In this document: positions 208 through 25,567 of the stretch, piece by piece
Layout: every line of letters begins with the position of its first letter
Numbering within the stretch: position 1 is the stretch's first letter
DNA from: a virus
Lineage: Duplodnaviria; Heunggongvirae; Uroviricota; Caudoviricetes
Virus record (IMG/VR): IMGVR_UViG_2734482790_000004
DNA: 64,000 nt
Reading direction: 5' to 3' (one strand)
Notes under the pieces: model-generated
What the model saw: the letters and a program-made list of their open reading frames with translations, nothing else
Told to the model about the DNA's origin: nothing
Databases searched by the model: none
Translations under genes and position numbers: made by a program

Positions 208-273
208 TTAATTAGAATAATTCGCATCGTGTTTGAACGGAATTTAACACTAGTCACTTGTTAAGGATTACCA

Positions 274-3200
274 ATGAACAAGCTATCTATGGGTGTGTTT
301 CGCTGTTCAAGTGTCAGCGAAATATTGAAATACATTAGGGCAATAACATCTCACCGAGCGCCGATTAAATACGGCGTGGAAAAGGTGGAAGGCAAAAGCT
401 ATGACCGACTGCGCCGGGAGGCGAATCAGAAGGCGATAGATTTGCTTAATTCGCTGGTGGACGGCGCGACACTGACAGATGAACAGCGCCAGATCCTGGC
501 CGGGTACACTGGTGAAGGCGGCATTGGCGGGTCCGTCTCCGAATATTACACACCAAAGCCTATCGCTGAAGGTGTCTGGGAGATCATGAAGCTCTACGGC
601 GCGGACGTAGGTAACACTCTGGAACCATCGGCGGGAACCGGCGTTTTTAATGAGACAAAACCGGTTGGTACGGTGATGACCGCGACTGAGATCAGCAGTG
701 TTTCCGGTCGTATAAACCAGTTGTTACACCCGGAAGACAGCGTACAGATTTCCCCGTTCGAACAGCTGGCTATAAACACGCCTAACGATTCATTCGACCA
801 TGTTGTGGGTAACGTTCCGTTCGGCGGTCGTGATAACACACGCAACATCGATAAGCCTTACGCAGAAGAAACGGACATGGGGTCTTACTTCATGCTCCGC
901 ATGCTGGACAAGATAAAACCTGGCGGATTCATGTGTGTGATTGTGCCGCCGTCCATTGTTTCAGGTTCAAACATGAAACGGTTACGCCTGCGCCTATCAC
1001 GGAAAGCTGAATTTCTTGGTGCCCACCGCTTGCCTACCGGTACTTTTGACGCAAACGGGACCAGTACAGTTGTTGATGTGGTGCTGATGCGCAAACATCC
1101 GGCAGAGATGGCTGAGAAAATCCCCCTGGTGGATGAAAGCACTCTCGAATCGGCAAATGTGCTTTGGCCAACGTTTATTTCTGGCAAGTGGTTTGAAAAG
1201 GACGGCCGCCGGTTTGTTCATGGCACCCAGGAAAAGGGCTTCCAGGGGCGTATTGAGGTTCGTGCCGACGGTCAGATTGATAACCAGGCTCTTAAAGCGA
1301 AGCTGATTCATCGTTTCGAAAGCCGTATCGACTGGTCTTTGCTCGATATGGCTGAACCGTCACCGACCGCAGACGTTGTTGGTGAAGGGGAAATGCGCCT
1401 GATTAATGGCGTATGGCAAAAATATGCTGGTGGTCGCTGGATTGAAGCTGATGCAGGGAAGGAACTTAAGATCGATGCTGCCAGTTATGGCGCGGATAGC
1501 TGGGAGGCTCTTCAGCGTAACCTGACTACAACAGAAGGCCGTCTCGGCATGACATTTACCCAGATGGCAAATGTCCGCGATAAGTACACCACATCAATCA
1601 GCGACGATATGGTGCAGCTGGTGGACTGGATTAACAGCCAGCCTGAAAAATACCGTGAACGCTTGTATCGCGGGGCGATGATTGGCCGGATGTTAATTGA
1701 ATATCAGGACATGAAGGCCGCCGGGCATAGTGCTGAACAAATCGAACAGCAGCGCCTTTCTCTGGTATCCCGTTTGCAGGCAGAGATTGACCGTTTTGGT
1801 AACCCCGGTCGCGGTCCGATAGCGAAATTATCGGGGAGCGGTGCGCGCGCCTGGTTTGCTTTCCGTGGTGCAATTAAGCTGGATGGCACTATTTCTGACG
1901 AGCTGACAGGAAAACTGGTTACGCATGATTCCAGCGCCAGTTATGACTCCACCAGCTATCAGGACACCCTGCGTTATCTCTACAGTGATCTCACTCGCGA
2001 TCCAATCCAGCTCGATGATTTCCGCCTTGCGTTTACCGGCGAACTGCCAGCCAGTGATGACGAGTTGCTTAATTTATTGGCCAGCACCCCTGGCATTGCG
2101 GTTTCACCGTATGGCGGGATTGTTCCGTTCGCCCGCGCCACCAGCGGCGACATTAACGAGATAGTGGCTCCAAAACAGGAATTCCTCGCCACGCTCCCCG
2201 ACGGTCCAGTAAAGAACAACGTCCTTAATCAGCTGGCAGCGATCGAAGAGAAGCGCATCAAGACGCCAGCAGAGAATATCCGCTTTAAGCTCAATAGCCG
2301 TTGGTTCGACCGTTCCGTCATTCTGGAGTTTTTGCAGGAAAACGGCTATCCGGATCTGCGCTATGTGCAGTCAGTGCAGCTGGAAGGCGACGAAATGGTT
2401 TCTGACACCTATCACGGTGGTGATGGCCTGTTCGTCGGGCACCGATACGGTGTCGTCCAGCGTAAGGATAAAGAAACAGGCGAGATCCGCTACGAGTGGG
2501 ACCGTAAATCAGGTGAAAACGCGACCGGGTTCCCGGCACAGCTGGAAAAGTATCTCAATGGTGCGCGTATCGGTGGCAAAGATAGCGCGACGGCGAACGG
2601 CTACCGCGAGCAGATGGCACTGCTTGAGGACCAGTTCAATAAGTGGATCAAGACGCACGATCGCTACGATGAGCTGGTTGCTAAATACAACGATGTGTTC
2701 AATAGCAATATCCCGTATGAACACTCTGGCGATCCGCTTGGGTTGAAGGGATTAAGCGGTAAGCGCCAGCCATTTGATTACCAGAATAGCGAGGTGCGCC
2801 GACTGTCCGAAGATGGGCGCGGCATCCTGGGCTTCGGCACCGGGCTGGGTAAAACCACGACCGCGCTGGCGCTTGAGGCGTTCAACTATGAGAACGGTCG
2901 CTCCACCCGTACTGCGTATGTAGTGCCTAAATCAGTGCTGGAAAACTGGTATTACGAAGCAAAAGAATTCCTGAGTGAAGAGGCATTCAGTAACTACCTG
3001 TTCGTCGGTCTTGATGTGCTGATGGATGGCGATCAGATTCGCCAGGTGCAGGTGCTCGATGAGAACGGTAAACCTGTTCTTGGTACTGATGGCACTCCAG
3101 TTATGCGCGATGCTCTTAAGCTGGCAGATGAAGCCACTATCACGGCGCGGATGAACGCGATCCCGCACTCAAATTACCGTGCAGTCGTGTTTACCAAAGA

Positions 3201-6200
3201 ACAATACGCCCGCATTCCGCTACGTGATGACACCGTAGATGAGCATGCACAGGATATGCTTTATGACTTCGTTGCCGCCGGACGCGTAGCCAGCGCAATG
3301 GACTCCGACTCCCACCGCAAAGAGGCCGCGCGTCGCCGGGTATTGTCGGAGTATTCAGATACCGGCACCGAAAAAGCAGAGAAGTATCCGTACTTTGAGG
3401 ATATGGGCTTCGATAGTGTGATCGCCGACGAAGGCCACAACTACCGCAATAGCTATAAAAATGGTCGCGAAGCGTCACAGCTAGCCTATCTGCCCACCAG
3501 CGCGGTAGCGCAATCGGCGCGAGATATGGCAATTAAAAACGCGTACCTGATGAAAAAGAATGGTGGGCGCGGGCCGGTTCTCCTGACTGCAACGCCAGTC
3601 GTTAACACCCCGATCGATGCATACAACATGCTTTCTCATGTTCTGCCGAAGGAATACTGGCAGAACATGGGGATCTACGGTCCTGATGACTTCGTTAAAT
3701 TCTTCGGCAAGACCAGGCTGGAAACGGTACAGAAAATTAGCGGTGAAGTTGAAGAAAAAATGGCGCTGGTGGGCTTTGAAAACCTTGATGCGCTGCGCGG
3801 TATATTCCATCGCTGGGTAACGCTTAAAACGGCGGAAGACGTTAAGGATACCGTGGAGATCCCGGAGCTGGACGAACACCAGCAGGATGCACCACTTACT
3901 GAAGAACAACTGGCGGCGTATGAAGAATTGCGTCAGCAGGCGGAAGCGGCGGCCAAAGCCAACAATGGCGTAACGACCTCGGTCAATGAAGACGGCGTGA
4001 TTGAGCACGAGAAAGCCCGTCCGATCTTCTCAATAATCAGGGATATGGACCGCGTATGTACTGACATGGACCTGTACTATCGCCGGATCACCTATCGTTT
4101 CCTGCCGGAGTACGCCGATGCGGTGCAGCAGCTGGCGGACAGTTTGCCTAAACAAGCCACCAGCGAAGACGACGACAGTGATGATTCAATCACGCAGCAA
4201 TCGCAATACTCCCTGATAGATAAGGGCGAGTTTATTCAGTTGCAGGTTCCGGAAGCGTTCGAGCAGGAAGTGAATAAGCGCCTGGCCAGGTTTGGCATTG
4301 ACGAACAGACCGTAACTCACCCCGTTACGCCCAAATACGCGAAGCTGATTGCCACGCTGAAGGAGTTTTTCCCGGAAGGTAAGCAAATCATCTTCACCGA
4401 TGAAAAAACGCAGCACCAGAAGCTCAAGCGCATTATCTGCAATGCTCTTAACCTTGAACCTTCAAAGGTGGGGATACTGAATGCTCAGACGGTTGCCGAG
4501 GCAGGTAAAACCGGTAAGAAACTGAAAGCGGTTAAACCGCCGAAAGAGTTACCGGATGAACCAACAGATGCACAGATAGCGAAATACAACGAGCAAATGG
4601 CTCTGTATGACGCCTATATCGCGCAGCAAAATGAAATGTCGTTGGGCGGTCTGGAAAAGATTGCAGCCGACTTCCAGGAGGGCCGGACTCCGATCATCAT
4701 CTGCAACAAAAAGGCAGAAGTGGGTATCAACCTGCATCGAGGAACGACTGACATCCATCATCTGACGTTGCCATGGACTCCAGCCAGTATTGCGCAACGA
4801 AACGGTCGCGGTGCCCGAGTTGGCTCCAACCGTGCAAGCGTTCGCGTTCACTACTACTGCGGCAAGGGGTCTTTCGATGAATACCGACTGAAGACGCTGA
4901 AGCGTAAAGCAGGCTGGATCTCCGATATCCTCCGTTCAGATAAGTCAGAAATGGAGAACGCCGACGCCAACGATATGATCGAAATGCAGATGTATACCGC
5001 GAAGGATGACGGCGAACGTCTGGCAATGATGCAGGTTCAAATGGATAAGGCGAAAGCTGCGAAACGCGCTCGCCAGAAAGAACAGGCTACTATCGACCTT
5101 CAGAACTACATCAAGGCGCAGCACGCAGCTGGTGAGGATGTGGAGGTACTTACCGCTGAATTGGAGCGAAGCAAAGCGGAACTTGAAAAGACCACCGCCG
5201 ACGTCGCCAAATTCAAACAGGCGGTAATGGCCAAAGCAGCTGATAACGCAGACTGGAAAGCCCGCTGGGGTAGCGTCCATCACACAGACCGTATGTTGTT
5301 AGCACAGTATCGCGCGTCGTTGAAAAGCGCCATTCAGCGCAAGGCTAATATCTCTCAGGCCATCTCCCGCTATGAGAAATTATTGAACCGTACTCAGAAG
5401 GCCGCGACGGATATCAAACGCCTGCGCCCGCTGGTGGAGGATGCAATAAATAAAGGCATTCTGGATGTTGATCCTGATCTGGTTAACCATGCGAATGAGT
5501 TCCTTGTTATCGGCGATCGCTCATGGCGTGTAGGCCAATACTATGATTGTGCCGGTGATATCGTTCGCATTAAGTCGCTGGACTTCGACAGCCAGCGCGC
5601 AGACGTGGAGATCATCTTTACCTTCAAAGGCACCAAATCGGGTAACTGGGATGTGAAGACGCTGGATAAACAGGTTGATGTAACTCCCGATGAAGATGCT
5701 GTTATGCAGAAAATCAGTGGTGGCGTCTCCATCGCCGGGATTAACGACATCGTTTCCTGTGACGATTTCTACCGTTTCCAGCAGCGCGGCATGATCAAAA
5801 TCACTGACTCATACGGCGTTCAGACTACAGAGTCAGGCTATAGCATTGATTTTGTTGGTACCTATACGGACCCACTGAAGCATGCGGTTTACCCGGATCG
5901 CCGTGACGGCGCGCTGAAGTCGTCAATTGCAAAATGGGTGCTTGGTATGATGTCGGAAGGGAATAACCGCCAGATCCGTTCGGCAGAAGCATTCCTGGTT
6001 GAACTGTTTGGCTCCAATTATGGCGATGTAATCGCGTCATACGGAGATACGCTATCCCCTGAAGCACTTCAGGAGAAAATAGCGGATGCGATCGCCAGAA
6101 TGCCGGAGAAAACAAGCCAGGGGGCTACTCGTAACGGGGATTCTGAACTTGAAGTCACCAATGCCATTTTCGGTACCAATGAGTTCCGGGCGTCAGATTA

Positions 6201-7041
6201 TGAGATCACCACAGCACAGTTTGGCACCATTGGCATTTACAGCAATAAAGCCGAGATCAAGCAGGCAATGGACGCAGCAAGCGCGCGCATCGCAGCAGAA
6301 CGGGAAGCCAATCTGAATCATGCAGTCGCCGCGCTGACTCAATCGTGGGTAACAGCAATCAGGGAGGCCGCCACCACAGGGAAAATCACACCTGCAATAG
6401 CGGATGTCGTAAACGACGGCTCTAAATTTATGGATGCCTATCAAATGGATGCGGTGAAGTTGCCATCAGCCTATGGTCAACTCAGCTATCGCATGACCTA
6501 CAACCTGGTATCAATGTTTTCCGACCTTGCCATCCTTGGGCTGGTGGATCTTAACGAGGTTACGCCGGAATTGCTCAGCATGCGCAAGAATCATGTGGAG
6601 ATATTGCAGAGAATTAACACGGTTCTTGCCGGGCGCACCGATGAAGAGAAACAGGCCGACGCTGATCGGATAAACCTGGCCCTTGGCAACATCACGGAGG
6701 AAGAGATTGCCGCCAGAAACGAGAAACAAGAAGAGTTATCATCAATACAGGGTGATGCCACCAGCATAGCTCAGTCTCTTGGTCTGAATTATCGCGTATC
6801 CACCGCCGACCTGAAGATGATGTACGCACCAAAATTCGCCGCTGGCGAGGTATTTGGGCTTCAGGAAGCCTCAGGCATGAAAGGCGTTCTTTTCCGTGCG
6901 AAAGACGCAATCAAGGCGAAATTCGGCGCTCGCTGGCTGCCAGCGAAGGCGAAGAACAGCGATTTCCCGGGTAACTGGTGGATTATCGAGACAAAACACA
7001 ACGTGGCGGACGTTCTGGCCGTCATCCAACAATACGCATAA
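274..7041 (+). CDS. darB: DarB-like defence-against-restriction protein, 2255 aa (methyltransferase-like region plus SF2 helicase)
   Basis: Single 6.8 kb ORF; length matches P1 DarB from memory; Walker A GFGTGLGKTT and DEGH helicase motifs; AAGGA SD before ATG. Confidence 0.8.
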   Translation: MNKLSMGVFRCSSVSEILKYIRAITSHRAPIKYGVEKVEGKSYDRLRREANQKAIDLLNSLVDGATLTDEQRQILAGYTGEGGIGGSVSEYYTPKPIAEGVWEIMKLYGADVGNTLEPSAGTGVFNETKPVGTVMTATEISSVSGRINQLLHPEDSVQISPFEQLAINTPNDSFDHVVGNVPFGGRDNTRNIDKPYAEETDMGSYFMLRMLDKIKPGGFMCVIVPPSIVSGSNMKRLRLRLSRKAEFLGAHRLPTGTFDANGTSTVVDVVLMRKHPAEMAEKIPLVDESTLESANVLWPTFISGKWFEKDGRRFVHGTQEKGFQGRIEVRADGQIDNQALKAKLIHRFESRIDWSLLDMAEPSPTADVVGEGEMRLINGVWQKYAGGRWIEADAGKELKIDAASYGADSWEALQRNLTTTEGRLGMTFTQMANVRDKYTTSISDDMVQLVDWINSQPEKYRERLYRGAMIGRMLIEYQDMKAAGHSAEQIEQQRLSLVSRLQAEIDRFGNPGRGPIAKLSGSGARAWFAFRGAIKLDGTISDELTGKLVTHDSSASYDSTSYQDTLRYLYSDLTRDPIQLDDFRLAFTGELPASDDELLNLLASTPGIAVSPYGGIVPFARATSGDINEIVAPKQEFLATLPDGPVKNNVLNQLAAIEEKRIKTPAENIRFKLNSRWFDRSVILEFLQENGYPDLRYVQSVQLEGDEMVSDTYHGGDGLFVGHRYGVVQRKDKETGEIRYEWDRKSGENATGFPAQLEKYLNGARIGGKDSATANGYREQMALLEDQFNKWIKTHDRYDELVAKYNDVFNSNIPYEHSGDPLGLKGLSGKRQPFDYQNSEVRRLSEDGRGILGFGTGLGKTTTALALEAFNYENGRSTRTAYVVPKSVLENWYYEAKEFLSEEAFSNYLFVGLDVLMDGDQIRQVQVLDENGKPVLGTDGTPVMRDALKLADEATITARMNAIPHSNYRAVVFTKEQYARIPLRDDTVDEHAQDMLYDFVAAGRVASAMDSDSHRKEAARRRVLSEYSDTGTEKAEKYPYFEDMGFDSVIADEGHNYRNSYKNGREASQLAYLPTSAVAQSARDMAIKNAYLMKKNGGRGPVLLTATPVVNTPIDAYNMLSHVLPKEYWQNMGIYGPDDFVKFFGKTRLETVQKISGEVEEKMALVGFENLDALRGIFHRWVTLKTAEDVKDTVEIPELDEHQQDAPLTEEQLAAYEELRQQAEAAAKANNGVTTSVNEDGVIEHEKARPIFSIIRDMDRVCTDMDLYYRRITYRFLPEYADAVQQLADSLPKQATSEDDDSDDSITQQSQYSLIDKGEFIQLQVPEAFEQEVNKRLARFGIDEQTVTHPVTPKYAKLIATLKEFFPEGKQIIFTDEKTQHQKLKRIICNALNLEPSKVGILNAQTVAEAGKTGKKLKAVKPPKELPDEPTDAQIAKYNEQMALYDAYIAQQNEMSLGGLEKIAADFQEGRTPIIICNKKAEVGINLHRGTTDIHHLTLPWTPASIAQRNGRGARVGSNRASVRVHYYCGKGSFDEYRLKTLKRKAGWISDILRSDKSEMENADANDMIEMQMYTAKDDGERLAMMQVQMDKAKAAKRARQKEQATIDLQNYIKAQHAAGEDVEVLTAELERSKAELEKTTADVAKFKQAVMAKAADNADWKARWGSVHHTDRMLLAQYRASLKSAIQRKANISQAISRYEKLLNRTQKAATDIKRLRPLVEDAINKGILDVDPDLVNHANEFLVIGDRSWRVGQYYDCAGDIVRIKSLDFDSQRADVEIIFTFKGTKSGNWDVKTLDKQVDVTPDEDAVMQKISGGVSIAGINDIVSCDDFYRFQQRGMIKITDSYGVQTTESGYSIDFVGTYTDPLKHAVYPDRRDGALKSSIAKWVLGMMSEGNNRQIRSAEAFLVELFGSNYGDVIASYGDTLSPEALQEKIADAIARMPEKTSQGATRNGDSELEVTNAIFGTNEFRASDYEITTAQFGTIGIYSNKAEIKQAMDAASARIAAEREANLNHAVAALTQSWVTAIREAATTGKITPAIADVVNDGSKFMDAYQMDAVKLPSAYGQLSYRMTYNLVSMFSDLAILGLVDLNEVTPELLSMRKNHVEILQRINTVLAGRTDEEKQADADRINLALGNITEEEIAARNEKQEELSSIQGDATSIAQSLGLNYRVSTADLKMMYAPKFAAGEVFGLQEASGMKGVLFRAKDAIKAKFGARWLPAKAKNSDFPGNWWIIETKHNVADVLAVIQQYA

Positions 7042-7074
7042 CAGGAGCGCCCGGTTCGCCGGGCGTCGCATAAT

Positions 7075-7515
7075 ATGGCCACACTATCTGATACAATAAA
7101 ACCGAATAAAACATATCTTGAGGCGGTACTCCGTACAGCGTTGTTAGGAAAGACAGAAGACGAATACGTTGATTTCTTCCTGTCAGGGCTACGCGGGCGA
7201 TTACTGAAAAATCCCCGCCTGTACCGCAGCTATGGTCCATACTGGCCGGAAATTAAAAAATTATTACTGGAGCGCGGTTATGGTAATTTCGGTCGTCTCG
7301 TTGACCGTGACGTTCGCAAAATTTACCGTTATGACCGCCCGGCGCTAACACTCATAGCCGCGACGCTCTACAGCCAGGAGCGTTTTGATAATGGTCAGAT
7401 ATACTCAGCCTGGCATTTACTGCCAGTGCCTGAAGAAGTTGACGACCAGGACTATGAGTTTGAGTCTTACGATTTGGAAGTTGAAGCCTTGGCACAGTCT
7501 GGAGAGAAAACTTGA
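7075..7515 (+). CDS. ulx: 146-aa protein downstream of darB (position of P1 Ulx)
   Basis: ORF directly after darB, overlaps next ORF by 4 nt; name by position only. Confidence 0.4.
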   Translation: MATLSDTIKPNKTYLEAVLRTALLGKTEDEYVDFFLSGLRGRLLKNPRLYRSYGPYWPEIKKLLLERGYGNFGRLVDRDVRKIYRYDRPALTLIAATLYSQERFDNGQIYSAWHLLPVPEEVDDQDYEFESYDLEVEALAQSGEKT

Positions 7516-7760
7516 AAAAGCGATACTACACAGTAAAGCATGGGACGCTACGAGCATTACAAGAGTTTGCTGACAAGCATAACGTTGAGGTGCGCAGGGA
7601 AGGGGGAAGTAAAGCTCTGCGCATGTACCGTCCGGACGGGAAATGGCGGACGGTCGTCGATTTCAAAACAAACAGTGTTCCCCAGGGCGTCCGCGACCGG
7701 GCATTCGAAGAATGGGAGCAGATCATCATAGATAACGCATTGCTTCTGAATGCTGATTAA
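7512..7760 (+). CDS. lxc: 82-aa protein (size and position of P1 Lxc, C1 co-repressor)
   Basis: 82-aa ORF translationally coupled to preceding ORF; name by size and position. Confidence 0.4.
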   Translation: MKKRYYTVKHGTLRALQEFADKHNVEVRREGGSKALRMYRPDGKWRTVVDFKTNSVPQGVRDRAFEEWEQIIIDNALLLNAD

Positions 7761-7792: not shown

Positions 7793-8090
7793 ATAAATAT
7801 ACTATATAAACTTAGATACAATATCGTGAATCTGTTGTAGCGGGATATCTTCCATCTCATTCTTAATAAGAGAGCGGTTAGATGCTGTCAGTGAAGGCCA
7901 TTTTGTTTTCCAGGCTAGATATGCTCGCCATGAGTAGCCTGTTTCGTAAGGTTTATTCATATAAGTCATTGAGTGTTCAACCGCATGTATGTATTTTTTC
8001 TCAAAATTGGTTCCTTTTACTTCAAATAAACTACCGAAATAAATAAGCCATTTTGCCAGGTGTTCATACTGCTCCCATGCGCCAGGCTTT

Positions 8091-9107
8091 TTAGTAAGTT
8101 CTATTTTTTTTATCTATTATATTACAAAAAACATTTAATACATTTTTATTATTCCAGCTATATCCAGATGATGAAATGGAGGAAATGATATGATAAAAAG
8201 AATCCTCTAGCTTCAAGAACTCTATTTTATACTCTCTTCCGTTTTTTATTACCGATTTGATTGAGTGCCTCAATTTGTCTTTTATTTTTTTTGCTTCTGG
8301 AATTTTATCGTTAAGTTTTCTAAAGAAATCAGATACCTCTGTTTTATCTATAACCCTAACCCCATAGCAGGAAAAATAGTAATCTTTAATAGGTTGCAAT
8401 AGTTCCCCTCGGGAAACAAGGAAAATATTGGAGGACATTACGTTGTCCCGTGAAAATACCTTATATTCATTTATAATAGCCTTTAGGTTCGCGTCACTTA
8501 GAGAATAGCCAAGGATAACAATAGTGTTTTCATGTAGAACTGTGCTTAGTTTATTAGAAAAGTAAGAATTACCATTTATAAATCTGAAATAATCCTCGCT
8601 AGTAACAACCATGTCTGATGGGGAGTCTATAGAACCGTGAACATGGTAGACTTTAACCTCACAATTATATTTTGGAATTGGCAGGCCGGGGGTGATTGTA
8701 CACGTTCGATTCTCTCCAGCCAGCTTTTCTGCTAACTTGTCATAATTTGTCGTAATTACTTTAAATGTGTTTTCTTTGAAAAAGTCTTGAATATATTCAA
8801 TTGATGGATCAAGTTCGATTGAGGCTATGATTTTCTCAATCTCTTGGTAAATATTTTTCCCCGAAAGTATAAATTTTAGTGCAATAACCTGAGCAGCTTC
8901 TTCAAGGCTAAGGTCTTTTGCTTTTCCATCAGGAAATAATTCCTCTTTGAGTGAGTCACCATCCTTCAATAAACCGCACAGTTGCTCCAATAAAGATTGC
9001 CAACTTGGGGCTTTATCATCAGAAACAGCCTTTGAAAATCCAGTGCCTGTAAGAAAGCACAGCCTATGTGTAGCCGCTGCATAGGCAATTTCTATATACT
9101 CGCTCAT
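8091..9107 (-). CDS. SIR2-like (sirtuin-fold) protein, 338 aa, in AT-rich islet; candidate defence gene
   Basis: Ordered motifs GTGFS (aa 21-25), TTNYD (aa 119-123), HVHGS (aa 155-159); GGAG SD 7 nt before ATG; strongly AT-rich relative to flanks. Confidence 0.6.
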   Translation of the reverse strand: MSEYIEIAYAAATHRLCFLTGTGFSKAVSDDKAPSWQSLLEQLCGLLKDGDSLKEELFPDGKAKDLSLEEAAQVIALKFILSGKNIYQEIEKIIASIELDPSIEYIQDFFKENTFKVITTNYDKLAEKLAGENRTCTITPGLPIPKYNCEVKVYHVHGSIDSPSDMVVTSEDYFRFINGNSYFSNKLSTVLHENTIVILGYSLSDANLKAIINEYKVFSRDNVMSSNIFLVSRGELLQPIKDYYFSCYGVRVIDKTEVSDFFRKLNDKIPEAKKIKDKLRHSIKSVIKNGREYKIEFLKLEDSFYHIISSISSSGYSWNNKNVLNVFCNIIDKKNRTY

Positions 9108-9163
9108 TACTTACTCCATTTACTTATAGTTCTACGGAGAAGTATACCCTAATGCATTGACGT

Positions 9164-9805
9164 TTATAGATAATTTCCTTTTCCTGTTAATACTCCCTTA
9201 GGCACCTGTTTTTGTGCCAGCGTTTGGGTGCCGCGAATTATGTTAATCAGAGGGCTTAGTAACGATGGTTCCTGGCGTGCCTCAACTTCTCCAGCCATTG
9301 CCCTGATGTAGTCGGCGCTGGCAACGTTGTTGTATTCCGTCGCAAAGCAACATAGTAACGTCAGAACATGCTCTGTCGTTATTTCGCTCCAGTTGATGTT
9401 GAAAAATTCATCGCCTTTTTTATCGTGTTCGGAATCGAAGATGCTTTGGTGGAGGATGTATTTGCCGGATTCCTTGCGCGGTAACTTGATTGCTTTCTGG
9501 CGTTCCAGCTCCTTATAAATCTGCATTGCCTCAATTAGTACCGGCCTGCCGTTCATGAAGGGATCGCGCAACCTTACACGCTGGCCAACTCGACCAGTAA
9601 TAAAGCTGTTTTCCTCTTCCACCAGCACGATAAAACCCTTTTCCTCTTTTTCTCGCAATTCGCGCAGCAGCTGGAGTTCCATATCGCGGCGGCGTTCAGG
9701 GTAGCTGGTCCGCTCAGCCATTATTAGCTCATTGTTGATCCATGCAGCAGTCATTGACGCCGGTTTGCCGACGCTCATCGAAACAACGCATATTTTCTTA
9801 TCCAT
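9164..9805 (-). CDS. 213-aa protein at the position of P1 mat (particle maturation), starting at MDKKICVV
   Basis: Backbone-like GC; internal Met with AGGGGG SD chosen over the 262-aa track ORF 9164..9952. Confidence 0.4.
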   Translation of the reverse strand: MDKKICVVSMSVGKPASMTAAWINNELIMAERTSYPERRRDMELQLLRELREKEEKGFIVLVEEENSFITGRVGQRVRLRDPFMNGRPVLIEAMQIYKELERQKAIKLPRKESGKYILHQSIFDSEHDKKGDEFFNINWSEITTEHVLTLLCCFATEYNNVASADYIRAMAGEVEARQEPSLLSPLINIIRGTQTLAQKQVPKGVLTGKGNYL

Positions 9806-9994
9806 AGCGCCCCCTACAAAAAAGAAAAGCCACCAGCGGCGGCTTAGCAATACAACTGAAGGTAGCGCCCGGTACTCAGACTGTGCCGTCCATGGAATAT
9901 TTGAAAAGGGATCCATCCGTACCGGGCATGTGATGATTCTGACTGAAGTCACTTGTCAGTTGTCAATTATTTCAGATTAAAAATAATATATTTA

Positions 9995-10555
9995 TTAGTG
10001 CATGATGTTTGCCATCTCATAGGCGTCAGCCAGCAACTCCATCTCTGACTTGTTCAGCAAGGTGAATTCTTTCTTGCCTCCAACCACACCATCGGCATGA
10101 ACAGGGACCAGCCAGGGGTATTTTTCTCTTACTTCAGCCGGTGCTGCATGCTGGTGGTGCCATCTACAAAGGGGCAATTGCTTTTTGTGACAACCCGGCG
10201 CGGTACGACCGGAGATATGGTGCAGAGATACCTCTTCAGATATTACTCCATGCATGTAGCAGGCAATGCAGGGGAGAGCGCCAAGAGCATTGGCGATGCT
10301 CCGTTCCTCCGCTGTCGATGTTCGCCCCTTCAAGCCACGAGATTTTATCTTTACCGCACTTTTCCGCGTTTTGCTGGCTGGTGGGCGCTCTTTCTGTTTA
10401 GCGATACGGCGGTCGATAGAATCCCGCATTTTCTGATATTGCGATTCTCGCCAGGCGGGGTCAGCCAACTTTTCCCGTTGCCGAGCGATCGCTCGTTCTC
10501 TGGCTGCCTTCTGCCACTCGCGGCGCTGTTCAAGTTTTTGTTCGATTGTTTTCAT
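9995..10555 (-). CDS. ref: Ref recombination-enhancement HNH endonuclease, 186 aa
   Basis: 186 aa as in P1 Ref; Cys/His cluster CIACYMHG...HHISG...CHKK...CRWHH typical of HNH. Confidence 0.75.
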   Translation of the reverse strand: MKTIEQKLEQRREWQKAARERAIARQREKLADPAWRESQYQKMRDSIDRRIAKQKERPPASKTRKSAVKIKSRGLKGRTSTAEERSIANALGALPCIACYMHGVISEEVSLHHISGRTAPGCHKKQLPLCRWHHQHAAPAEVREKYPWLVPVHADGVVGGKKEFTLLNKSEMELLADAYEMANIMH

Positions 10556-10560
10556 ATGGC

Positions 10561-10588
10561 AAAAAAAAAAGGCGGCCTAATGGCCGCC
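10561..10588 (-). terminator. Rho-independent terminator-like hairpin GGCGGCC-ATTA-GGCCGCC plus U10 on minus strand, 6 nt upstream of ref ATG
   Basis: 7-bp GC stem and ten T on minus strand. Confidence 0.55.
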
Positions 10589-10655
10589 AATGATGTCAAG
10601 GAGTTAAGTAATGGCAACGTCTTCGTAGTTGACAAAAACTGCGGCTTAATTATAG

Positions 10656-10672
10656 CAATCAATTAGAGCAAT
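10656..10672 (-). promoter_or_regulatory. C1-operator-like 17-mer (consensus ATTGCTCTAATAAATTT), 14/17
   Basis: CAATCAATTAGAGCAAT; degenerate second copy just upstream. Confidence 0.45.
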
Positions 10673-10803
10673 GGTAGGTATTTTGTTAATCGCGAATCAC
10701 ATTTTTTCACTTCAGTACCTGTGTGCTATACTCCTTCTTGATTGATTGGATGCGGAATACAAACCCGCTCTTTTGTGCAGCCTGGCTCCTTGCCAGGCTT
10801 TTT

Positions 10804-11115
10804 TTATTTCATCATGGAAGCTGTTAACGCTTTGGATCTTGCTGAACTGATTGAAAGGGCATTGTTTACCTTACCCAGGAGTTCGCCAAATTCCCCCATC
10901 ACTCTAGTAAGCCCGCGCCGCGCTTCCTCCTCCGTTGCATTCATCACAAAATGTTCAGCACTCCGCATGCTTTTAACGGGGAACGCAACAGATATCGAGT
11001 CGATATCAGGCATCCTATCGCTCAACTTTACGGTGACAATGACAGATGGTGACTGAATTTGAGAGCTTACAGACAGCACCACATATTTTCCGTCTATTTT
11101 GAAATCCTTCCGCAT
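10804..11115 (-). CDS. 103-aa hypothetical protein between cre and ref (position of P1 cra)
   Basis: ORF on same strand as cre and ref, preceded by operator-like site. Confidence 0.3.
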   Translation of the reverse strand: MRKDFKIDGKYVVLSVSSQIQSPSVIVTVKLSDRMPDIDSISVAFPVKSMRSAEHFVMNATEEEARRGLTRVMGEFGELLGKVNNALSISSARSKALTASMMK

Positions 11116-11131
11116 GTGTCACCATAAATAT

Positions 11132-11148
11132 CAAATAATTAGAGCAAT
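11132..11148 (-). promoter_or_regulatory. C1-operator-like 17-mer, 13/17
   Basis: CAAATAATTAGAGCAAT between cre stop and cra-like ORF. Confidence 0.4.
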
Positions 11149-11165
11149 CAAGCGCAAATGAACGG

Positions 11166-12197
11166 CTAATCGCCATCTTCCAGCAGGCGCACCATTGCCC
11201 CCGTTTCACTATCCAGGTTACGAATGTAGTTCATGACAATATTTACGTTGGTCCAGCCGCCAGCTTGCATGATCTCCGGTATAGAAACTCCGGCGCGGGC
11301 CATATCTCGCGCGGCACCGACACGGGCACTATGTCCAGACCAGGCCAGGTATCGCTGACCAGAGTCATCTTTTGCCCCGTAAATCAATCGGTGAGTTGCT
11401 TCAAAAATCCCTTCCAGGGCGCGAGTTGATAGCTGGCTGGTGGATGATGGCGCGGCAACACCATTTTTTCTGACGCGGCAAAACAGGTAGTTATTCGGAT
11501 CATCAGCTACACCAGAGACAGAAATCCATCGCTCAACCAGTTTAGTTACCCCCAGGCTAAGTGCCTTCTCTACACCAGCGGTGCTAACCAGCGTTTTCGT
11601 TCTGCCAATATGGATTAACATTCTCCCACCGTCAGTACGTGAGATATCTTTAACCCTGATCCTGGAAATTTCGGCTATACGTAACAGGGTGTTATAAGCA
11701 ATCCCCAGAAATGCCAGATTACGTATATCCTGGCAGCGATCGCTATTTTCCATGAGTGAACGAACCTGGTCGAAATCAGTGCGTTCGAACGCCAGTGCCT
11801 GTTTTGCACGTTCACCGGCATCAACGTTTTCTTTTCGGATCCGTCGCATGACCAGTGAAACAGCATTGCTGTCACTTGGTCGTGGCAGACCGGACCGACG
11901 ATGAAGCATATTTAGCTGGCCCAAATGTTGCTGGATAGTTTTCACTGCCAGACCACGCGCCTGAAGATATAGAAGATAATCGCGAACATCTTCAGGTTCT
12001 GCGGGAAACCACTTCCGGTTATTCAACTTGCACCATGCCGCCCACGACCGGCAAACGGACAGAAGCATTTTCCAGGTATGCTCAGAAAACGCCTGGCGAT
12101 CCCTGAACATGTCCATCAGGTTCTTGCGAACCTCATCACTCGTTGCATCGACCGGTAATGCAGGCAAATTTTGGTGTACGGTCAGTAAATTGGACAT
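11166..12197 (-). CDS. cre: Cre site-specific tyrosine recombinase, 343 aa
   Basis: Translation MSNLLTVHQNLPALPVDATSDEVRKNLMDMFRDRQAFSEHTWK... recognised as Cre; loxP 420 bp upstream. Confidence 0.97.
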   Translation of the reverse strand: MSNLLTVHQNLPALPVDATSDEVRKNLMDMFRDRQAFSEHTWKMLLSVCRSWAAWCKLNNRKWFPAEPEDVRDYLLYLQARGLAVKTIQQHLGQLNMLHRRSGLPRPSDSNAVSLVMRRIRKENVDAGERAKQALAFERTDFDQVRSLMENSDRCQDIRNLAFLGIAYNTLLRIAEISRIRVKDISRTDGGRMLIHIGRTKTLVSTAGVEKALSLGVTKLVERWISVSGVADDPNNYLFCRVRKNGVAAPSSTSQLSTRALEGIFEATHRLIYGAKDDSGQRYLAWSGHSARVGAARDMARAGVSIPEIMQAGGWTNVNIVMNYIRNLDSETGAMVRLLEDGD

Positions 12198-19417: not shown

Positions 19418-19563
19418 GATTATAAACTTCACAGGCATAAAGCACCAGCACTTTGCGGCTTAACAAACCTCTAGGCAGGTCATTCGTAGCCTAATGTCCG
19501 AACTGTTAAAGCATCCAAGTTGCTGTAGAATCACCGCCAATTACATAAGCCTGAAATAAGTGG

Positions 19564-21126
19564 ATGAAAATGACAAGTATTCAACAACGTGCAGAGCTTC
19601 ATCGTCAAATCTGGCAAATTGCTAACGATGTCAGGGGTTCGGTCGATGGATGGGATTTTAAGCAATACGTTCTGGGCGCACTTTTCTACCGTTTTATCAG
19701 CGAAAATTTTTCCAGCTATATTGAAGCCGGTGATGACAGCATCTGTTATGCGAAACTGGATGACAGCGTAATTACTGATGACATTAAAGACGATGCCATC
19801 AAAACCAAAGGCTACTTCATCTACCCAAGTCAGCTTTTCTGCAACGTAGCTGCGAAAGCAAATACCAATGACAGACTGAACGCAGATTTAAACAGCATCT
19901 TCGTTGCTATCGAAAGTTCTGCTTACGGTTATCCTTCAGAAGCAGACATCAAAGGTTTGTTTGCTGATTTCGATACCACCAGTAACCGCCTGGGTAACAC
20001 CGTTAAGGATAAAAATGCCCGCCTGGCCGCGGTTCTGAAAGGGGTTGAAGGGTTAAAGCTTGGCGACTTTAACGAACATCAGATTGACCTGTTCGGCGAT
20101 GCCTATGAGTTCCTGATTTCTAACTATGCCGCGAATGCCGGTAAGTCAGGCGGCGAGTTCTTTACACCGCAGCACGTCTCTAAGCTGATTGCACAACTGG
20201 CTATGCACGGGCAGACCCACGTTAACAAAATCTACGACCCGGCAGCAGGTTCCGGTTCTCTGTTATTGCAGGCTAAAAAGCAGTTTGATGACCACATCAT
20301 CGAAGAAGGTTTTTTTGGTCAGGAAATCAACCATACGACCTATAACCTGGCGCGTATGAACATGTTTTTGCACAACATCAACTACGACAAGTTTGATATC
20401 AAGCTGGGCAATACGCTGACTGAGCCGCACTTCAGAGATGAAAAACCGTTTGATGCCATCGTTTCTAACCCGCCGTATTCGGTGAAATGGATTGGCAGCG
20501 ATGACCCGACGCTGATTAACGATGAGCGTTTTGCCCCGGCTGGCGTTCTGGCCCCCAAATCCAAAGCTGACTTTGCGTTTGTATTACATGCGCTGAACTA
20601 TCTTTCGGCCAAAGGTCGTGCTGCGATTGTCTGCTTCCCGGGTATTTTTTACCGTGGCGGCGCAGAGCAGAAAATCCGTCAGTATCTGGTCGATAATAAC
20701 TATGTCGAAACCGTAATTTCACTGGCTCCGAACCTGTTCTTTGGCACCACCATTGCCGTAAACATTCTGGTTCTGTCCAAACATAAAACGGATACCAACG
20801 TTCAGTTTATTGATGCCAGCGAACTGTTCAAAAAAGAGACCAACAACAATATCCTGACCGATGCCCATATCGAACAGATTATGCAGGTATTTGCCAGCAA
20901 GGAAGATGTTGCTCATCTGGCAAAATCTGTCGCGTTCGAAGCCGTTGTCGCGAATGACTATAACCTGTCGGTGAGCAGCTATGTGGAAGCGAAAGATAAC
21001 CGCGAAATTATCAATATTGCTGAACTGAATGCAGAGCTGAAAACCACGGTCAGCAAAATCGACCAGTTGCGTAAAGATATTGATGCAATTGTGGCTGAAA
21101 TTGAAGGCTGCGAGGTGCAGAAATGA
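19564..21126 (+). CDS. hsdM: Type I R-M methyltransferase subunit HsdM (EcoR124-like, family IC), 520 aa
   Basis: NPPY motif ([10 protein letters not shown]), AdoMet motif DPAAGSGS; near-identity to remembered EcoR124I HsdM. Confidence 0.9.
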
Positions 21127-22329
21127 GCGAGTTGAGTTATCTGGAAAAATTGATGGATGGGGTTGAGGTTGAGTGGTTGCCACTCTCAAAAGTATTCAAC
21201 TTAAGGAATGGTTATACACCGTCTAAAACTAAAAAAGAATTTTGGGCGAATGGTGATATACCTTGGTTCAGAATGGATGACATACGTGAAAATGGTAGAA
21301 TTCTAGGGAATTCACTTCAAAAAAATTTCATCCTGCGCCGTAAAAGGGGGGAAACTATTTCCTGAAAATTCAATATTAATATCAACGTCGGCAACAATTG
21401 GTGAGCATGCTTTAATCACTGTACCTCATCTAGCCAATCAAAGGTTTACATGTTTGGCTTTAAAAGAGTCTTATGCTGATTGCTTTGATATTAAATTTTT
21501 ATTTTACTACTGTTTTTCTTTAGCTGAGTGGTGCCGAAAAAACACAACGATGTCCAGTTTTGCGTCTGTTGATATGGATGGATTCAAAAAATTTTTAATC
21601 CCTCGCCCCTGCCCGGATAATCCGGAAAAATCCCTTGCCATCCAGTCTGAAATCGTTCGGATTCTGGATAAGTTTACTGCACTTACCGCTGAGCTTACCG
21701 CTGAGCTTAATATGCGTAAAAAACAGTACAACTACTATCGCGACCAGTTGTTGAGTTTTAAAGAGGGTGAGGTTGAGTGGAAGACTTTGGGAACATTTGC
21801 AGATAATTTTGATTCTCTTAGAAAACCAATAACTAGTGGATTAAGGGAGACTGGAAATATTCCCTATTATGGTGCGTCAGGCATTGTTGATTACGTAAAA
21901 GATTATATTTTTGATGATGACCTGTTATTAATTTCTGAAGATGGTGCGAATCTTATTGCAAGAAATACCCCTATAGCTTTTAGCATTAGCGGTAAAACGT
22001 GGGTGAATAATCATGCTCATGTACTTAAATTCAAAAACTACACTGAACAAAAATTTGTTGAATATTACTTAAACAATATCAATCTTACGCCGTACATATC
22101 AGGAGCAGCCCAGCCAAAGCTAAATAAGAAAAACTTAGAAAGTATCCGTATTCCTAATCCATCACTAAAAGAAAAAGAGCGGATTGTTACTATTCTGGAT
22201 AAATTCGACACCCTGACTAACTCCATCACCGAAGGTCTCCCGCGTGAAATCGAGTTACGCCAGAAACAATACGAGTACTATCGTGATTTACTGTTCAGTT
22301 TCCCAAAACCTGAAACAGTCAGTAATTAA
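21123..22329 (+). pseudogene. hsdS: Type IC specificity subunit HsdS, interrupted by +1 frameshift in G6 tract (21346-21351)
   Basis: Track ORFs 21123..21365 and 21454..22329 join into one HsdS when one G is removed; conserved central TAEL repeats and C-terminal region. Confidence 0.8.
21685..21708 (+). repeat. 2 x 12-bp direct repeat encoding TAEL-TAEL in HsdS central conserved region
   Basis: ACCGCTGAGCTT x2. Confidence 0.8.
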
Positions 22330-22450
22330 TTGACCATTGCTACCGACCGGGCCACCTTAACATCCGGTCTGTATATAGACTATTTTTTACACGCTGGAAG
22401 TCGCCCTTAAAGCTCTTCCGGCCCTTGCCAGACGGCACAAAGGATGCGCT

Positions 22451-25400
22451 ATGACTCATCAGACATACACCATTGCTGAATCCAATAACTTTATCGTTCT
22501 TGATAAGTACATCAAAGCTGAGCCAACAGGCGACAGCTACCAGAGCGAATCGGACCTGGAACGTGAACTGATTCAGGACCTGCAAAATCAGGGCTATGAA
22601 TTTATACCCGTAAAATCACAGTCAGCGATGCTGGCCAACGTTCGGGAACAGCTTCAGAGCCTCAATGGTGTGATGTTTAATGACAGCGAGTGGCGGCGCT
22701 TCACGGAGCAGTATCTGGACAACCCCAGCGATGGTATTCTGGATAAAATCCGTAAAATCCATATCGACTATATTTGCGACTTTATTTTTGATGACGAGCG
22801 TCTTGAGAACATCTATCTGATAGATAAAAAGAATCTCATGCGCAATAAGGTGCAGATTATCCAGCAGTTTGAACAGGCAGGTTCTCACGCTAACCGTTAT
22901 GACGTAACTATCCTGGTTAATGGCTTGCCACTGGTGCAAATCGAACTGAAAAAGCGCGGCGTGGCGATTCGTGAGGCTTTCAACCAGATACATCGTTACA
23001 GTAAAGAGAGTTTTAACAGCGAAAACTCCCTGTTTAAGTATCTGCAACTGTTTGTCATTTCTAACGGCACCGATACCCGTTATTTTGCCAACACAACAAA
23101 GCGCGATAAAAACAGTTTTGACTTCACCATGAACTGGGCGAAATCAGACAATACACTGATTAAAGACCTCAAAGACTTTACCGCTACCTTTTTCCAGAAA
23201 CATACTCTGCTTAATGTTCTGGTGAACTACAGCGTTTTTGACAGTAGTCAGACGCTACTGGTGATGCGACCGTACCAGATTGCCGCCACCGAACGAATCT
23301 TATGGAAAATCAACAGCTCCTATAAAGCGAAAAACTGGTCTACCCCCGAAAGCGGTGGCTTTATCTGGCACACCACCGGTTCTGGTAAAACCCTCACCAG
23401 CTTTAAAGCCGCGCGGCTGGCAACAGAACTGGACTTTATTGATAAAGTCTTCTTCGTGGTCGACAGGAAAGACCTCGATTACCAGACTATGAAGGAATAT
23501 CAGCGTTTTTCGCCAGATAGTGTTAACGGCTCGGAAAATACCGCAGGTCTAAAACGAAATCTGGATAAGGACGATAACAAAATTATCGTCACCACTATTC
23601 AGAAACTTAATAACCTGATGAAAGCAGAAAGCGACCTGCCTGTATACAATCAGCAAGTGGTGTTTATATTTGATGAATGCCACCGCAGCCAGTTTGGAGA
23701 AGCGCAGAAAAACCTGAAGAAGAAATTCAAACGCTATTATCAGTTTGGTTTTACCGGCACTCCTATTTTCCCGGAAAACGCTTTAGGTTCAGAAACGACC
23801 GCCAGCGTATTTGGTCGTGAATTGCATTCGTATGTAATTACCGATGCGATTCGAGATGAAAAAGTGCTTAAATTCAAGGTGGACTACAACGATGTGCGGC
23901 CACAGTTTAAGTCTTTAGAGACAGAAACTGACGAGAAAAAACTAAGTGCGGCTGAAAATCAGCAGGCGTTTCTTCATCCCATGCGTATTCAGGAAATCAC
24001 GCAATATATTCTGAATAATTTCCGCCAGAAAACTCACCGTACCTTCCCTGGCTCAAAAGGTTTTAATGCTATGTTGGCAGTGAGCAGCGTGGATGCCGCG
24101 AAAGCCTATTATGCGACGTTTAAACGGTTACAAGAAGAAGCCGCTAATAAATCGGCTACCTATAAACCGCTGCGTATTGCGACAATCTTCTCCTTTGCCG
24201 CCAATGAAGAACAAAATGCCATTGGTGAAATTTCCGATGAAACTTTTGATACCAGCGCAATGGACAGCAGTGCTAAAGAGTTTCTGGACGCTGCAATTCG
24301 TGAATATAACAGCCATTTTAAAACTAACTTTAGCACCGACAGTAACGGTTTTCAGAACTACTATCGTGATTTAGCCCAGCGGGTTAAAAATCAGGATATC
24401 GATCTGCTAATTGTCGTGGGGATGTTTTTAACCGGCTTCGATGCTCCAACATTGAACACGCTATTCGTCGATAAAAACTTGCGTTTTCACGGCCTGATGC
24501 AGGCATTTTCCCGCACCAACCGTATTTATGATGCAACTAAAACCTTCGGTAATATCGTCACTTTCCGGGATCTGGAACGCTCAACTATTGATGCCATAAC
24601 GCTGTTTGGTGACAAAAACACCAAAAATGTGGTGTTAGAAAAGAGTTATACAGAGTATATGGAAGGCTTTACTGATGCTACTACTGGTGAAGCTAAACGC
24701 GGCTTCATGACAGTAGTTTCAGAACTGGAACAACGGTTCCCTGACCCTACCAGTATTGAAAGTGAAAAAGAGAAGAAAGACTTCGTTAAACTGTTTGGCG
24801 AATACCTGCGTGCCGAGAACATCCTGCAAAACTATGATGAATTTGCCACGCTAAAAGCCCTGCAACAAATCGATCTTAGCGATCCTGTTGCGGTAGAAAA
24901 ATTCAAAGCAGAACATTATGTGGATGATGAAAAGTTCGCTGAATTGCAAACAATTCGTCTCCCTGCTGATCGCAAGATTCAGGATTATCGTTCTGCCTAT
25001 AACGATATTCGCGACTGGCAGCGCCGTGAGAAAGAAGCTGAGAAAAAAGAGAAATCAACCACTGACTGGGATGACGTAGTTTTTGAGGTCGATTTGCTGA
25101 AGTCTCAGGAAATAAACCTGGATTATATCCTTGGACTGATTTTCGAACACAACAGACAAAATAAAGGCAAGGGCGAAATGATCGAAGAGGTCAAACGCTT
25201 AATTCGTTCAAGCCTAGGGAACCGTGCTAAAGAGGGCCTGGTGGTCGATTTTATTCAGCAAACGAACCTGGATGATTTACCAGACAAAGCCAGTATCATT
25301 GAGGCATTCTTTACGTTTGCTCAACGCGAACAGCAACGTGAAGCAGAAGCATTGATAAAAGAAGAAAATCTCAATGAAGAGGCAGCAAAACGCTATATTC

Positions 25401-25567
25401 GCACGTCTTTAAAACGCGAATACGCCACCGAAAATGGCACAGAATTAAACGAAACATTACCAAAACTTAGTCCGTTGAATCCGCAATATAAAACGAAAAA
25501 ACAGGCAGTTTTCCAGAAAATCGTCTCGTTTATTGAGAAGTTTAAAGGCGTAGGCGGAAAAATATAG
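22451..25567 (+). CDS. hsdR: Type I restriction endonuclease subunit HsdR (EcoR124-like), 1038 aa
   Basis: 1038 aa; helicase motifs GSGKT, DECHRS; follows hsdM-hsdS. Confidence 0.9.

Follow-up and report, generated by a model that had tools for sequence, protein, structure and literature searches.

A one-base expansion of an adenine run probably inactivates hsdS in the EcoR124-type cassette of a P1-like phage-plasmid

The viral record IMGVR_UViG_2734482790_000004 contains a 64,000-nucleotide stretch of DNA, hereafter the window, in which an otherwise complete type I restriction-modification (R-M) cassette carries an hsdS gene split between two reading frames. An earlier note on this stretch placed the break in a G6 homopolymer and saw in it a possible ON/OFF or specificity switch, a possible source of half-S subunits or, just as possibly, a sequencing error. 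The locus thus raises the question of where exactly hsdS is broken, whether the break is real, and whether what is left of the gene can still serve the system. The features on which the answer depends are the following:

19465..25567, plus strand: self-contained type IC R-M module made up of hsdM, hsdS and hsdR, and the one part of the window with a match to the non-P1 loci L005, L007 and L008
19570..21126, plus strand: hsdM, intact, 518 aa, matching the EcoR124II M protein (7bst_D) with 1155 bits over residues 1-518
21123..21365, plus strand: 5' fragment of hsdS, 80 codons (67 native and 13 out of frame) followed by TGA
21319..21325, plus strand: A7 run, the true frameshift site (A6 in the wild type) and the only indel relative to intact hsdS
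21326..22329, plus strand: rest of hsdS in the +1 frame, comprising the remaining TRD1, the central conserved region, TRD2 and the C-terminal conserved region
21346..21351, plus strand: G6 run named in the earlier note, of wild-type length (G6 in intact genes)
21363..21365, plus strand: premature TGA of the shifted frame
21685..21708, plus strand: two 12-bp ACCGCTGAGCTT repeats, read from the sequence, which encode TAEL-TAEL in the central conserved region
22451..25567, plus strand: hsdR, intact, 1038 aa, matching EcoR124 HsdR (2w00_A) with 2278 bits, residues 1-1038 against 1-1038

The lesion was located by aligning the window with the intact hsdS genes of the E. coli AZ155 chromosome (L002) and of plasmid pTB222 (L003). 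A single indel separates them, one extra A in the run that begins 11 bases upstream of the region delimited in the earlier note (which started at 21330) and 27 bases upstream of the G run; the G run itself is G6 in both intact genes. The tracts were also read out with a regular expression in the window and 19 fetched loci. A7 together with G6 is found in the window, in GmM062 (L001/L010) and in the assembly of run ERR7420927 (L004), and the other 16 loci matched by the pattern have A6 or AAAGAA followed by G6 or GGGGGA, with the exception of L011, which combines AAAGAA with G5. The pTB222 locus falls outside the regular-expression pattern and was assigned A6/G6 by alignment and by a separate reading of its tracts. 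G6 is present in the intact L002, L003 and L005-L009, metagenome contigs have G6 or GGGGGA, and in all nine intact copies whose tracts read as uninterrupted runs (9/9) G6 is the wild-type length. The earlier note was thus right that one extra homopolymer base breaks hsdS, that the N-terminal frame stops at 21365 (the TGA at 21363..21365 closes the 80 codons) and that a G6 run lies at 21346..21351; its placement of the extra base in that run does not hold, since the lesion is A6 to A7 and not G5 to G6.

With one A taken out, hsdS of the window encodes a 401-aa protein, GNSLQKISSCAVKGGKLFPENS, whose identity to the database proteins P0016-P0018 is 100% at the rounding of the search output. The mechanical ORF of the downstream frame (21454..22329) belongs to an hsdS frame that is collinear with these intact 401-aa proteins. 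As the earlier note stated, deleting one G also restores a continuous reading frame into the 21454..22329 ORF, but it yields eight non-native residues, NFILRRKR in place of ISSCAVKG. The true HsdS reads ...LQKISSCAVKGGKLFPENS... and not ...NFILRRKRGKLF..., the intact AZ155 and pTB222 proteins carry ...GNSLQKISSCAVKGGKLFPENSILISTSATIG..., and the RKRGKLFPENS junction proposed earlier is non-native, intact genes corresponding to a repair at the A run. The repair at the G tract was dropped because the intact homologues are G6 and differ solely at the A run. Shifting into the -1 frame at the A run leads nowhere, as that frame closes after 10 codons. The case shows that a frameshift need not lie in the nearest conspicuous homopolymer and has to be placed by comparison with intact homologues.

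The identity of the cassette is clear from all three genes, which are co-oriented in the order hsdM-hsdS-hsdR. The hsdS ATG at 21123 overlaps the hsdM stop codon (ATGA), a feature of translational coupling, and is preceded by a GAGG Shine-Dalgarno motif. The hsdM product is labelled subunit M in the GmM062 record, and PF12008 (EcoR124_C) is recorded for the L004 gene product identical to the window HsdR. When the repaired HsdS is aligned with the EcoR124 S chain (7bst_A), the conserved N-terminal, central and C-terminal blocks match almost residue for residue, the stretch FTALTAELTAELNMRKKQ is identical, and FTALTAELTAEL with its two TAEL repeats is common to the window HsdS and the solved EcoR124 S chain; neither TRD matches. 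These HsdR, HsdM and HsdS similarities bear out the earlier type IC assignment, and on sequence grounds the system is a member of the EcoR124 family with TRDs unlike those of the prototype. As written, with the A7 frameshift and a stop after 80 codons, the locus lacks the complete S subunit of a type IC system; it is EcoR124 family by descent, and a disrupted copy. Compared with EcoR124I and EcoR124II, the prototype type IC systems of plasmid R124, the window has matching HsdR and HsdM, the conserved regions of HsdS and the same gene order, but both TRDs, and thus the specificity, differ, a P1-like phage-plasmid takes the place of a conjugative plasmid as carrier, and hsdS is frameshifted. The number of TAEL repeats fixes the spacer length of the type IC recognition sequence (PMC3874165). 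The 12-bp TAEL repeats vary among relatives that share TRD1, with three in the AZ155 chromosome and two in pTB222 and the window; such a difference in type IC alters the recognition-sequence spacer by 1 bp, and amounts to natural spacer-length variation between alleles.

Is the extra A real? Single-base homopolymer indels are the commonest error of long-read assemblies, and A7 is found in one of 5426 complete E. coli genomes; the earlier note held an error to be equally possible, in which case the real plasmid would be A6 with an intact hsdS. However, the same A7 occurs in three independent assemblies: the window, the separately assembled GmM062 plasmid and the Logan assembly of ERR7420927, the latter being 100% identical to the window over 6301 nt of hsdMSR, A7 included. 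The 80-aa frameshift product (P0001) is recorded on 93 contigs from NCBI, ENA, Logan and UniRef (it is indexed in 133 blocks), and all of the contigs read with this product (24/24) have the same P1-like neighbours, lpa, pdcB, pdcA, doc and phd, followed by hsdM. The window and GmM062 are set apart by mosaic differences at 0.2-7.8 kb and 8-12 kb and are thus two separate plasmids, whereas from 12 to 47.8 kb (about 36 kb) they show 7 mismatches and no indel, homopolymer indels included, so neither assembly is prone to homopolymer errors. Matches covering at least 80% of a 431-nt TRD1 query were found in 101 complete E. coli genomes, the 39 best of them, self-match aside, being 430 of 431 bases long. 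A 74-nt query spanning both tracts found 101 complete E. coli genomes; among the 60 matches listed, 58 aligned over 73 nt, which is in frame, and one, a G5 case, over 72 nt. The A6 run is evidently read correctly in other genomes, and GmM062 alone among the 101 was identical to the query and has A7. The recurrence of A7 in independent assemblies, with the product on 93 contigs in one and the same context, excludes a sequencing error for practical purposes, and we regard an assembly artefact as scarcely credible. The A7 allele is inherited within one P1-like plasmid lineage.

A real length change in a homopolymer could still be a reversible one. Slippage between A6 and A7, or in the G tract, would then toggle the R-M system within populations, as in NgoAV hsdS. 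Homopolymers are prone to slippage, this TRD1 has been frameshifted more than once (A7 here, G5 in L011 and the 84-aa P0004 on 9 contigs), and NgoAV, from Neisseria gonorrhoeae, is also type IC and switches through a poly-G tract (PMC7383803). The precedents cited in the earlier note, type IC half-S subunits and homopolymer switching (poly-G in NgoAV), are indeed sound (PMC3874165, PMC7383803). However, a survey of simple sequence repeats in type I genes of REBASE counted mononucleotide tracts of at least 9 nt, with G7 the shortest documented (PMC7383803); the tracts here, A6/A7 and G6, are 6-7 nt and fall short of that length. Neither is kept as an uninterrupted homopolymer among homologues either: the A run is interrupted as AAAGAA (Lys to Arg) in L011, L014 and L016, and the G run as GGGGGA (synonymous) in L012 and L018. 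Because relatives interrupt the runs by substitution, there is no selection to keep them as homopolymers.

The distribution of alleles points the same way. No tract-length polymorphism was found within the lineage, the 24 P1-context contigs that were read, GmM062 and the window all being A7. A metagenome scan of the tract region with both runs variable returned 10 contigs, 10/10 in frame, and the same scan of IMG/VR, with both runs left variable, returned no match. Intact hsdS genes with the same TRD1 and TRD2 are represented by three proteins (P0016-P0018) encoded on five contigs; each time the locus is a non-P1 one, and outside 19465..25567 its flanks have nothing in common with the window. 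An intact copy of the same hsdS in a P1-like context was sought among PLSDB plasmids and phage records, neither of which yielded a match to 80% or more of the gene, and no A6 copy or revertant was found in that context in PLSDB, the phage records or the protein collection. The OFF product would also lack both a complete TRD and the conserved helix, and could not provide an alternative specificity, unlike NgoAV. The likeness to NgoAV is that a type IC hsdS is cut by a one-base homopolymer change (PMC7383803, PMC3874165); the difference is that the truncated NgoAV protein is active as a homodimer and changes in its tract switch specificity, whereas the window is shifted at codon 67 within TRD1, in an A6/A7 tract, leaves an 80-aa stub and shows no length variation in its lineage. 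The short tracts, their interruptions, the uniform A7 and the lack of an A6 copy in P1-like contexts argue against a contingency locus and fit a fixed slippage mutation. The phase variation proposed earlier thus finds no footing in a lineage that is uniformly A7, and we consider a switch very unlikely.

Other frameshifts were seen in the same TRD1. In the E. coli Z1323PEC0010 chromosome (L011, 3022..3075) it is the G run that breaks it, AAAGAA being followed by G5, and hsdS is annotated as two CDSs. P0004 is a G5 product of 84 aa ending ...KGGNYFLKIQY, and P0009 has a one-base deletion in GGGAATTC. The frameshifts of L011 and P0004 may be either real mutations or long-read errors; taken as mutations, such repeated frameshifts (L011, P0004, P0009) are recurrent decay rather than regulated switching.

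Another possibility raised by the earlier note is that the part of hsdS downstream of the lesion is translated from an internal start and yields the central region, TRD2 and the C-terminal region, which would homodimerize and confer a new palindromic specificity like that of EcoDXXI deltaN. The candidate start codons, with the pairing energy of their upstream region to the anti-Shine-Dalgarno, compare as follows:

21123, ATG: native hsdS start, -7.2 kcal/mol, coupled to hsdM
21454, TTG: in frame, -3.4 kcal/mol, 89 nt beyond the stop codon
21550, ATG: in frame, -2.8 kcal/mol
21787, TTG: in frame, -6.3 kcal/mol, with a GAGG about 14 nt away, which is too far
22451, ATG: hsdR start, -5.4 kcal/mol, for comparison

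The material for a half-S subunit is present in part: type IC C-terminal halves can act as homodimers (EcoDXXI deltaN recognizes GAAY N5 RTTC; PMC3874165), the downstream frame is open and undamaged from 21454 to 22329, hsdM and hsdR are intact, and the three in-frame starts listed above exist. Against this, Shine-Dalgarno pairing is weak at TTG 21454 and ATG 21550, the GAGG before TTG 21787 is too distant, the first canonical start lies 89 nt beyond the stop, a poor arrangement for reinitiation, and products initiated at 21454 or 21550 would keep a partial TRD1 and would likely misfold. The PGAP CDS call at 21397 relies on an ATT codon and is no evidence of translation. The upstream product does no better. 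By alignment with the EcoR124 S subunit, its native part breaks off at residue 67, within a TRD extending over about residues 20-150, so the 80-aa product stops inside TRD1; it is the sole fragment with a credible start, and a half-S subunit comprises a complete TRD with the conserved helical region. The active N-terminal halves of EcoR124I(delta50), EcoDXXI deltaC and NgoAV retain an entire TRD together with the central helix (PMC3874165), and the 80-aa product is not comparable to them. The undamaged downstream frame does hold the same parts as EcoDXXI deltaN, the C-terminal TRD and the conserved helices, but EcoDXXI deltaN and deltaC and EcoR124I(delta50) were engineered with expression signals, whereas the C-terminal part in the window is without a convincing start or Shine-Dalgarno motif. 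No second hsdS able to use HsdM and HsdR was found in the window. Translation signals for the C-terminal half thus appear weak but not impossible; with the upstream product stopping within TRD1 and the downstream starts poorly paired or badly spaced, the half-S route has little to commend it and is, in our view, highly improbable.

The frame might instead be corrected at low frequency, by RNA polymerase slippage giving A6 transcripts or by a +1 slip of tRNA-Lys on CAA-AAA-AAU, and so supply native full-length HsdS at a low level, leaving the R-M system attenuated. The native ...LQKISS... is regained exactly if one A is lost or if the tRNA moves by +1 from one AAA to the AAA that overlaps it, and the rescue of frameshifted genes at A/T runs is documented (PMC1088944). 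Productive transcriptional slippage, however, is linked to runs of about 9, or of 8 in a few organisms, and not 7 (PMC1088944), the run has no stimulatory element such as an upstream Shine-Dalgarno motif or, in the A site, a rare codon or a stop codon, and the -1 frame is a dead end. We see only a slight chance of such leaky correction. More broadly, the A7 allele may be other than null, either by frame correction or through the weak internal start of a TRD2 half-S, with low-level or altered-specificity type IC activity as the outcome; this we hold to be quite unlikely. If it were true, the widespread P1-like lineage would keep hsdM and hsdR intact because the attenuated system is still useful.

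We propose, with good though not complete confidence, that a fixed and stably inherited loss-of-function frameshift, A6 to A7, has inactivated hsdS of an EcoR124-type cassette on a P1-like phage-plasmid. By replication slippage, the run at 21319..21325 would have grown from A6 to A7, which places the insertion at codon 67/68, midway through the N-terminal TRD. Ribosomes starting at the coupled hsdS ATG would end at the TGA at 21363..21365 and release an 80-aa fragment devoid of any complete domain. With no S subunit, neither the M2S methyltransferase nor the R2M2S endonuclease could assemble, and the plasmid system would be r- m- despite intact hsdM and hsdR. We infer this null phenotype from the fact that M and R require S for DNA binding (PMC3874165); the system is probably left unable to restrict or modify. 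The mutation would have arisen once, become fixed and been inherited vertically in one plasmid lineage.

Decay of the cassette has not progressed beyond this step, since no other lesion affects hsdM, hsdR or the 3' part of hsdS, and three assemblies agree at 100% identity over the 6.3-kb region. Such an undecayed cassette may be compatible with residual function. Subunit complementation is the classical criterion by which type I families are defined. By that definition, a type IC S subunit encoded elsewhere by the host could recruit the plasmid HsdM and HsdR.

Genes of the P1-like phage-plasmid that carries the cassette include c1, pacA/pacB, lpa, phd/doc, ref and those for a cre-like integrase and a darB-like methylase, and in P1-like elements the cassette adjoins phd/doc. 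Related cassettes of pTB222 and of Punavirus vB_EcoM-673R5 occupy the same phd/doc-pmgS locus, and their hsdM and hsdR are 96-97% identical to those of the window; pTB222 also shares TRD1 and has an intact S subunit of its own (422 aa). The C-terminal TRD differs from that of the window. The genes annotated as fragmented in vB_EcoM-673R5 (L022, 3472..9423) are hsdM, in two pieces, and hsdR, in three, rather than hsdS, which reflects either further cassette decay or assembly errors. A search of the literature on type I systems in P1-like phage-plasmids found nothing relevant.

Outside P1-like elements, the cassette is 96.5-96.9% identical to the loci with an intact gene (L005, L007 and L008). 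Homology to these non-P1 loci begins some 100 nt before hsdM and extends precisely to the hsdR stop codon, and hsdS is 99.3% identical, compared with 95.5-97% for hsdM and hsdR. This pattern suggests that the whole cassette may move en bloc, with recombination inside it exchanging hsdS or the TRDs. In L007 and L008, the intact allele lies beside genes for a 129-aa S24 peptidase and an 83-aa protein of the DNA polymerase III theta type, which may resemble P1 humD and hot. These two genes adjoin metG and an mrp-like gene, genes for DUF3927, TerB-like, RNase H and Dam proteins follow downstream, and the region may be an integrated element.

Elsewhere in the window, the darB-like gene for a 2255-aa N6-methylase is about 1.5% divergent from its GmM062 counterpart (patch at 264..7760), and the integrase/ref region (8000..12000) is a mosaic in which 2 kb contain 154 mismatches as well as several indels. 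Judged by sequence comparison, these divergent patches look like recombination in a clonal backbone. The window is identical or nearly so to GmM062 at the three pseudogenes annotated in that record, all of them partial:

32151..33353, plus strand: DNA adenine methylase without its N-terminus
42101..43225, minus strand: tail protein without its N-terminus
43314..44039, minus strand: DNA cytosine methyltransferase without its C-terminus

Three tRNA genes lie at 34029..34182 and 36183..36258, called by ARAGORN as Asn-GTT, Thr-TGT and a tRNA with a CAT anticodon that it takes for Met; in the annotation of GmM062 the third is given as Ile, i.e. a lysidine-type tRNA-Ile2.

The split genes of this lineage have already been deposited and annotated, and the phenomenon is one of routine R-M decay. 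What the present analysis changes is how these records are to be read. The two S-subunit CDSs that they contain are one frameshifted gene, with the lesion, A6 to A7, at 21319..21325, and tallies of defence systems or predictions of methylation motifs for P1-like phage-plasmids should count the type IC cassette of this lineage as probably non-functional.
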